Origin: Escherichia coli
Lineage (GTDB): Bacteria > Pseudomonadota > Gammaproteobacteria > Enterobacterales > Enterobacteriaceae
DNA: 64,000 bases
Reading direction: 5' to 3' (one strand)
NCBI RefSeq assembly: GCF_041886205.1
Contig: NZ_CP169029.1
Shown here: piece by piece, positions 8,705-9,319 of the stretch
Numbering within the stretch: position 1 is the stretch's first letter
Layout: every line of letters starts with the position of its first letter
Translations under genes and position numbers: made by a program
The notes under the pieces: model-generated
Seen by the model: only the letters and a program-made list of their open reading frames with translations
Told to the model about the DNA's origin: nothing
The model's database searches: none

Positions 8705-9319
8705 CGAACTCCTCGTGCTTTATAATTATAAAAGCACAACGCCTTTTATATTCATATTAATTAACGAAATACTGAAGCAACTTAATTTATTCTTCGCTCA
8801 AATTCATTAGCTTAAATTCTTTACCCACAATTGTAGCATAAATAATATTATCGAAAGTCAAAGCTGGGACTATCAAATTTCGCTCATTTTCAAAAAATAC
8901 AACGTAATTTTGGCAATCATCTTAATCGCAGGATCTCTTATCGCATGTAAAAAATTTGTAATGATTAGACAATAACCGCGTTCATTGATCACGCGTTATA
9001 AATGTGAAACTGGCTTCTTGCAGATGCTCTTAACCTCTACAGGAGGATTTATACCACCATTTCAGAACTATCATATTTACCTTAAATGATCATTTCAGCC
9101 ATATAACACGCTCAACCTCGCAAATGGTTTACACTGTCTATTGTTTGGGTAATTTAAGTAAGTCAGCTACGAGCAACCTTGAGTGGGTAGCCAGCAATGG
9201 ACTCAAACCCAATCAGGTGTTCAGATTGTTTCAGAATTGTATTAAAAACAATGTATTAAATAATCTGATAGCGTTTGGTCGTAGTGTGACGCAGACAGCA
9301 AGCTAATAAGGAAATGATT

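Follow-up and report, generated by a model that had tools for sequence, protein, structure and literature searches.

AT-rich segments that are variably present among core genes have been described in Escherichia coli and Salmonella, and the bgl operon, the enterocyte effacement locus (LEE) and the espX/espY islets exemplify their xenogeneic silencing by H-NS. Other described systems that bear on the present case are hairpins that sequester a Shine-Dalgarno sequence (RNA thermometers, translational operators), long structured leaders with an upstream open reading frame (ORF) that act by leader-peptide control, and the EspX-family type III effectors of enterohaemorrhagic E. coli (EHEC). Here, we analyzed a gap between two genes in a 64,000-nucleotide stretch of an E. 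coli genome (contig NZ_CP169029.1 of assembly GCF_041886205.1; hereafter the window, to which all positions refer). The gap separates an accessory gene on the minus strand, encoding a pentapeptide-repeat protein, from the lipoprotein gene ybjP on the plus strand. The original prediction had described an AT-rich interval of about 600 bp upstream of the accessory gene, and indeed it measures 615 bp (from a GTG codon at 8704–8702 to the ybjP ATG at 9320; 648 bp if counted from an ATG at 8671), with a guanine-plus-cytosine (GC) content of 34% over 8672–9319. Our preferred reading, to which we assign a probability of about 0.6, is that the gap is an ordinary divergent control region within a horizontally acquired segment rich in AT, active towards ybjP and silent towards the accessory gene.

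The gap is enclosed in a larger islet (Table 1). Homology to K-12 breaks off at 6746 and returns at 9302, which leaves 18 bp to the ybjP ATG; both boundaries are sharp, and ybjQ (6368–6691, minus strand) and ybjP (9320–9835, plus strand) are separated by 2.6 kb here versus 125 bp in K-12. The GC content of the islet is 25–40%, as against 50–60% in the flanking core genes, and the pentapeptide-repeat gene is its only long gene. We found the gap and islet in 1128 of 5426 complete E. coli genomes (21%), every copy being chromosomal and at the same site. The divergence from K-12 continues into the coding sequence of ybjP: identity is 77–80% over 9302–9601 (proportion of synonymous differences, pS, 0.66; ratio of non-synonymous to synonymous substitution rates, dN/dS, 0.12) and 98–100% from 9602 onward. 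This step at ~9602 points to a recombination junction inside ybjP, and, judged from the alignment, islet-bearing strains have a xenologous N-terminal third of the lipoprotein. Since the divergent segment reaches ~280 nt into ybjP, the gap would be the segment’s own internal control region, and the foreign DNA would have brought a new ybjP 5’ end with it.

A search for the islet in a plasmid collection returned mislabelled chromosomes only, and a scan of 100,044 species genomes matched a single contig, which resembles E. coli and belongs to a ‘Collinsella’ metagenome-assembled genome (MAG). This 2972-bp contig (JAIJJM010000403.1, ‘Collinsella sp.’, Actinobacteria) bears the islet, with an encoded accessory protein at 96% identity, and probably reflects mis-binning or contamination. 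No relatives of the accessory protein, nor of the small ORF Z1096 described below, were found beyond E. coli and Shigella, and only two deep lineages (A and B) were therefore available for comparison, the second consisting of WL297 and a metagenome contig and being ~20% diverged across the islet. The gap was aligned over seven alleles, and statements on conservation rest overall on 7–13 of the ~1128 alleles. Three stretches were conserved between lineages: 8665–8694 (just 5’ of the ATG), 8851–8895 and 8990–9170. The remainder of the accessory-gene half showed 20–40% divergence. Its most variable stretch, 8800–8835, contains a 9-bp indel at 8815/8816, AAAGATTAT, which is present in O157, 2013C-4465 and WL297 and missing in this sequence.

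The ybjP-proximal third of the gap, which the original prediction had passed over, is ybjP’s own promoter with a long 5’ leader. We placed EDL933 transcription start sites assigned to ybjP (RS04960) and RS04965 on the window through the EDL933 sequence. Among the sites listed in Table S5 of the Cappable-seq study (PMC10469882), 1033043 (our 9112) was detected in exponential phase with salt and in stationary phase in M9 and with salt, 1033012 (9143) in exponential phase in lysogeny broth (LB), M9 and salt and in stationary phase with salt, and 1033014 (9141) in stationary phase in LB and acid. In the same order, the leaders to the ybjP ATG are 208, 177 and 179 nt long; each site has a plausible -10 element (Table 1), and these sites thus indicate that ybjP is transcribed from within the islet. 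In strand-specific RNA-seq of EDL933 under 11 conditions, ybjP (Z1095) reached 0–175 reads per kilobase per million mapped reads (RPKM; PMC4048457). The best conserved stretch between lineages, 8990–9170, spans the ybjP promoters and the start of the leader, with 9120–9164 being identical. The ybjP-proximal half of the gap (~9000–9319) would therefore supply the ybjP promoters in place of the K-12 promoter, which this sequence lacks, and transcripts starting at ~9112 and 9141–9143 would carry a 177–208-nt leader with two strong local structures and Z1096. A 2026 preprint describes YbjP as a lipoprotein partner of TolC whose expression in K-12 depends on sigma-S (10.1101/2025.03.19.644130); the upstream region of ybjP that belongs to this K-12 control is replaced in islet-bearing strains. 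The main text of the EDL933 RpoS regulon paper does not mention the locus.

Two islet alleles carry insertions that reach the gap. In CUWW06, a deletion mediated by an insertion sequence (IS), IS1, took out the accessory gene and 8705–8987, where IS1 now stands (L003 3247–4000), and 8988–9319 is retained, in keeping with an active ybjP side. In Escherichia sp. 79.0191 (L014 1–52), the end of an insertion sequence adjoins ~9108, between the -10 element of the upstream ybjP promoter and its start site; we take this end to resemble that of IS10. At the opposite boundary of the islet, the EDL933 ybjQ start sites 1035442 and 1035398 map to ~6725 and ~6769, assuming no indels. The distal one falls within the left end of the islet, which may thus add a promoter to ybjQ as well.

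On the other side of the gap, we first consider where translation of the accessory gene begins, since the position of the hairpin in the original prediction depends on it. Several gene callers choose the GTG at 8704, although the 600-aa form that it opens is merely the longest ORF. The allele comparison argues for another codon. In WL297, one nucleotide is deleted between the GTG and the ATG at 8671, which puts the GTG out of frame there and leaves the 589-codon frame from the ATG intact, and in RS571 the GTG reads GTA. The GAGGAG upstream of the GTG changes to AGGGAG in WL297 and to AAGGAA in RS571. The motif GGGTGAT, upstream of the ATG, is unchanged in seven of seven alleles, and its GGTGAT (8684–8679) pairs with the 3’ end of 16S rRNA by standard base pairing. 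On this comparative evidence the accessory gene has its conserved start at the ATG at 8671 and not at the GTG lying 33 nt further upstream; the GAGGAG/GTG pair is probably not a functional translation start, and 8672–8704 is most likely 5’ untranslated region (UTR). Translation would then proceed from the ATG through the invariant GGTGAT motif. The WL297 copy (L006 1343–3144) is a frameshifted pseudogene in RefSeq, yet its sole frameshift is upstream of the conserved ATG; the label given by the Prokaryotic Genome Annotation Pipeline (PGAP) is thus an annotation artefact, arising because the GTG start was assumed.

Between lineages A and B, the accessory gene has a dN/dS of 0.32. Pfam returned matches to pentapeptide repeats only, searches against defence-system, phage-family and PDB sequences gave nothing past these repeats, and no full-length relative outside E. 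coli and Shigella was found among 1.84 billion representative proteins. The gene is often inactivated: it is split in O157:H7, where the halves are ECs0949/ECs0950 (Z1097/Z1098), and other strains have internal stops, truncations or an IS5 insertion. A literature search by locus tag (ECs0948–0950, Z1095–Z1098) found no functional study. An identity with espX3 was considered and ruled out: EspX3’ corresponds to ECs4654/4655 and EspX2 to ECs0876, and this gene to ECs0949/0950.

The inverted repeat highlighted by the original prediction is real. Its 7-bp stem, the TATAAT-containing loop (UAUAAUUAU on the minus strand) and, 3’ of it on that strand, GAGGAG (8714–8709), TTCG and GTG (8704–8702) are all present as described. 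The idea built on it was that the hairpin abuts, or occludes, the GAGGAG Shine-Dalgarno sequence of a GTG-initiated accessory gene and controls its translation. The extended form of the stem lends this some appeal, as 9–10 pairs become possible using 8713–8714 and 8738–8739, covering the first 2 nt of GAGGAG; the common lineage has the GTG in frame; and folding of the seven alleles gives the hairpin as consensus, 97% of cells being paired and four one-sided changes keeping pairing in minus-strand RNA. However, with the conserved start at the ATG, where PGAP also starts intact copies, the functional start codon lies 44 nt downstream of the hairpin, which is then not an element abutting a ribosome-binding site; the -1 frameshift in WL297 and the loss of the GTG in RS571 point the same way.

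Nor do the structural statistics set the hairpin far apart. On its own it has a free energy (dG) of -6.1 kcal/mol, and it exceeds chance only weakly: in dinucleotide shuffles of the region, a perfect 7-bp hairpin occurred in 46%, and one with at least three G-C pairs in 9.5%. Fold z-scores reached -2 to -3.5 in sliding 60-nt windows, but only -1.37 in a 71-nt context (200 shuffles) and +0.2 for the 181-nt putative leader. No compensatory two-sided changes were seen across the seven alleles. The minimum-energy fold of the 181-nt leader picks a competing inverted repeat, at 8727–8750, that is lost in WL297 and LH50c. A transcript that contains the hairpin is putative, as no start site for the accessory gene is among those listed in the eight EHEC conditions. 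We thus regard translational control through a GAGGAG-abutting hairpin as improbable. Within the divergent control region favoured here, the hairpin would lie in the accessory leader, 44 nt 5’ of the start, and would not gate the functional ribosome-binding site; it is at most a minor element of mRNA structure, in a 5’ UTR that is itself putative.

The same repeat could instead act as DNA, either as the operator of a dimeric regulator or by providing, with the TATAAT of the loop, the -10 element of an accessory-gene promoter with a very short leader. Its two perfect 7-bp arms, 9 bp apart, and the consensus TATAAT between them on the coding strand would suit either role, and such promoters are common in AT-rich foreign DNA. 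Against this, 8716 is C instead of T in three of the seven alleles, O157 included, which creates a C.A mismatch and abolishes the symmetry of the DNA, the stem survives in WL297 only with a bulge, TATAAT becomes TATGTT in the divergent lineage, and no -35 element for it passed our scan. Copies of the palindrome in the window are at chance level (5 found versus 3.5 expected), the islet has no regulator gene, and none of the EHEC start sites listed in the Cappable-seq table lies near the repeat. An operator role, which the original prediction had offered, is unlikely, and so is a promoter in the loop.

A better candidate for the accessory-gene promoter lies further upstream, at 8876–8847 (TTGATA-18-GATAAT), and its position and that of its start near 8840 are predicted from sequence. 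It sits in 8851–8895, the best conserved block of the accessory-gene half (1–3 differences per 30 nt between lineages), and the two lineages differ within it in the spacer only, both hexamers being unchanged. In the reading that we favour, the accessory-gene half of the gap, from 8672 to ~8990, would serve the pentapeptide-repeat gene as promoter and 5’ UTR, the candidate promoter driving a transcript with a leader of ~170 nt. The promoter would be held nearly off under laboratory conditions. In the EDL933 RNA-seq data, Z1097 (the 5’ fragment of the accessory gene) has an RPKM of 0–3 across the 11 conditions, and so has Z1098 (the 3’ fragment), apart from a value of 11 in LB with antibiotics (PMC4048457). 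The rise of Z1098 (equivalent to ~6902–7300) in that condition, from RPKM 1 to 11, corresponds to a log2 fold change of 5.1 (PMC4048457, Table 2); prophage genes and espY5’ are also up in LB with antibiotics in the same table. Among the sites listed for EDL933 by Cappable-seq in eight conditions there is no gene-associated or antisense start for RS04970, the accessory gene (PMC10469882, Table S5). The segment is AT-rich relative to its host and horizontally acquired, and published EHEC data, from a background in which the accessory gene is a pseudogene, show that gene to be silent. This is in keeping with the H-NS-silenced promoter that the original prediction envisaged, without proving it. 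H-NS-type silencing is plausible here and would be the likeliest cause of the silence: the DNA is foreign and rich in AT, and the gene, otherwise unexpressed, goes up slightly alongside other islet genes. An H-NS-type motif, TCGATAATAT, a weak one, overlaps the -10 element of the candidate promoter.

Several observations weigh against the divergent control region as we describe it. Promoter-like matches in the region number 4, versus 4.4 expected from shuffles. The H-NS motif is only weakly enriched in the islet, which has 6 of the 87 hits in the window within 4% of its sequence; we found no H-NS occupancy data for the locus, which is missing from the supplement of the Sakai H-NS/Pch chromatin immunoprecipitation (ChIP) paper. 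All the transcript data are from O157:H7, whose copy of the accessory gene is a split pseudogene, so the silence may not hold where the gene is intact, and the full set of EDL933 start sites, larger than the gene-assigned list, may include an orphan site in the gap. The common lineage has not only an in-frame GTG but a good GAGGAG 4 nt upstream of it, and dual initiation, at the GTG besides the ATG, may occur there. Finally, all four pairs of the 8715–8737 hairpin that changed on one side did so to G.U or A-U, which hints at some room for a modest structural constraint.

The leader of ybjP contains the statistically strongest structure of the gap, the hairpin at 9221–9268 (z = -5.5, with 0 of 200 shuffles as stable). 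The sole difference between lineages A and B in this hairpin is in the apical loop, and it is not an intrinsic terminator, as no U-tract follows it. A second structured spot lies at ~9170–9230; the z-score of the entire ybjP leader is -1.9. Compensatory changes were found at 0 of 62 pairs in the leader, and four pairs are broken in one allele (three in the divergent allele, one in O157). Any role for the hairpins in the gap is putative.

Overlapping these structures is Z1096, a small ORF that was named in the original EDL933 annotation, later became RS04965 and is no longer annotated by PGAP. It may be a genuine gene for a 60-aa protein, transcribed together with ybjP and perhaps coupled to it in translation, which would be compatible with the divergent control region. 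Of the gap ORFs of at least 20 codons, only Z1096 is kept in both lineages, and it is intact in six of the seven aligned alleles, the exception being a nonsense allele in RS571. The other five frames of its region hold stops, and the lineages differ by eight synonymous and six non-synonymous changes (dN/dS 0.20, permutation p ~0.01), as expected under purifying selection, although this is a sample of just 14 substitutions and RNA hairpins overlap the ORF. Its RNA follows that of ybjP over the 11 EDL933 conditions, ranging over RPKM 0–235 (44 versus 40 in LB, 235 versus 153 at 15 °C; PMC4048457), and its stop is only 13 nt ahead of the ybjP ATG. The listed start site at 9112 is 12 nt 5’ of its ATG, but the more frequently detected ones, 9141 and 9143, fall inside it. 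No Shine-Dalgarno sequence precedes the ATG at 9124, Z1096 is missing from the 465 translated intergenic ORFs of the Sakai ribosome profiling, and a search of the EDL933 translatome paper’s supplements returned nothing for Z1095–Z1098. It has no homologues outside E. coli and Shigella and no family match, and its AlphaFold2 model is uninformative (predicted local distance difference test, pLDDT, 45). On balance we consider a protein-coding Z1096 possible but doubtful, and any role for it would be putative. If it is real, protein-coding constraint would account for some of the conservation seen in the part of the gap next to ybjP. The small protein that the original prediction thought might have escaped the ORF track thus has one conserved candidate, without a Shine-Dalgarno sequence and without a ribosome-profiling listing in Sakai; the broader expectation that the region is more than a bare promoter holds, given this conserved ORF and the transcribed non-coding sequence of the leader. 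Other small ORFs (8715–8810, 8873–8992, 8985–9089 and others) were discarded, each being broken in at least one allele.

An independent small regulatory RNA encoded in the gap had also been suggested. The strong local structures at 9170–9230 and 9221–9268 could belong to one, and the ratio of Z1096 to ybjP reads, which varies from 0.4 to 6 across conditions, could mean a separate leader-derived species. However, Rfam searches of both strands with E up to 10 gave no match at the gathering score (the best, with E = 1.6, being a eukaryotic snoRNA model), no terminator-like site was found on either strand, and there is no covariation. The listed start sites are assigned to ybjP, with reads running on into it. 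With neither an Rfam match nor a terminator-like site, a free-standing small RNA is unsupported, and we consider it very improbable. Some further candidate elements were also rejected: the left arm of an imperfect palindrome at 8973–9000 is lost in the divergent lineage, the second copy of a direct repeat, TTCGCTCAnnTTCA (8793 and 8879), is unconserved, and an AGGAGG on the plus strand (9041–9046) is missing in the divergent lineage.

Taken as ordinary biology, these results leave current understanding unchallenged and amount to two annotation corrections and a modest lead. The start of the accessory gene should be annotated at the ATG at 8671, and at least one “frameshifted” allele is actually intact. 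In about one fifth of E. coli, including O157:H7 and records of Shigella sonnei and S. flexneri, foreign promoters and a long structured leader would drive ybjP, and, because YbjP is linked to TolC, such strain-specific control could bear on the biology of the envelope and of efflux. The lead concerns Z1096 and the hairpin leader of ybjP. Speculatively, the ybjP-proximal part may be a functional module that arrived together with the xenologous 5’ third of ybjP, and the Z1096 protein, the 9221–9268 hairpin as a cis-regulatory RNA, or both, would control YbjP in replacement of the sigma-S control of K-12. We hold this only tentatively and think it rather unlikely; if true, the module would control a TolC partner in the islet-bearing ~20% of E. 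coli.

Table 1. Positions of the islet, genes, promoters and structural elements discussed in the text (window coordinates).
Feature	Positions	Strand	Remarks
AT-rich islet	6747–9301		Stands in for 52 bp of the K-12 ybjQ-ybjP spacer; encloses the 615-bp gap
Pentapeptide-repeat gene	6902–8671	-	589 codons from the conserved ATG; PGAP start of an intact copy maps to 8671
GTG-to-ATG segment	8672–8704	-	Includes GGTGAT 8684–8679; most likely 5’ UTR
GAGGAG	8709–8714	-	4 nt 5’ of GTG, 37 nt 5’ of ATG; read from sequence
Hairpin of the original prediction	8715–8737	-	GTGCTTT 8715–8721 / AAAGCAC 8731–8737; 7-bp stem, 9-nt loop
Overlapping alternative inverted repeat	8727–8750		TATAAAAG + CTTTTATA; competes with the 8715–8737 hairpin
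Candidate accessory-gene promoter	8847–8876	-	TTGATA, 18 nt, GATAAT; predicted start near 8840; consensus match 10/12
ybjP promoter P1	9100–9112	+	-10 CATATAAC 9100–9107; start ~9112 = EDL933 1033043 (Cappable-seq)
ybjP promoter P2	9130–9143	+	-10 TACACT 9130–9135; starts 9141 and 9143
Z1096	9124–9306	+	60 aa, within the ybjP leader; stop 13 nt before the ybjP ATG
ybjP leader hairpin	9221–9268	+	11-bp stem + 5-bp stem; dG -16.4 kcal/mol
ybjP	9320–9835	+	DUF3828 lipoprotein; PGAP annotation; first ~280 nt in the divergent segment

How does the locus compare with the systems named at the outset? As in Shine-Dalgarno-sequestering hairpins, the 8715–8737 hairpin stands directly 5’ of a GAGGAG and its extended stem pairs 2 nt of it; unlike in those systems, the conserved start and its GGTGAT, 33–44 nt downstream, stay unpaired, the stability is modest, compensatory changes are lacking, and transcription of the leader is putative. 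The leader of ybjP recalls those with an upstream ORF in its length of 177–208 nt, in an ORF ending 13 nt before ybjP and in a stable conserved hairpin, but Z1096, with 60 codons, is longer than classical leader peptides, it has neither a Shine-Dalgarno sequence nor regulatory codon runs, and no terminator/antiterminator pair was found in the leader. The accessory protein has no sequence similarity to the EspX-family effectors outside the repeats (1.84 billion representative proteins searched); what they have in common is a pentapeptide-repeat protein whose gene lies on a small non-phage, AT-rich islet of O157:H7. With respect to H-NS-silenced islets, this locus differs in having no known anti-silencer and in that its transcript data come from a pseudogene-bearing strain. 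It resembles them in being an AT-rich, variably present segment among core genes, whose accessory gene is near-silent in 11 RNA-seq and eight start-site conditions and, like espY5’, rises slightly with antibiotics.

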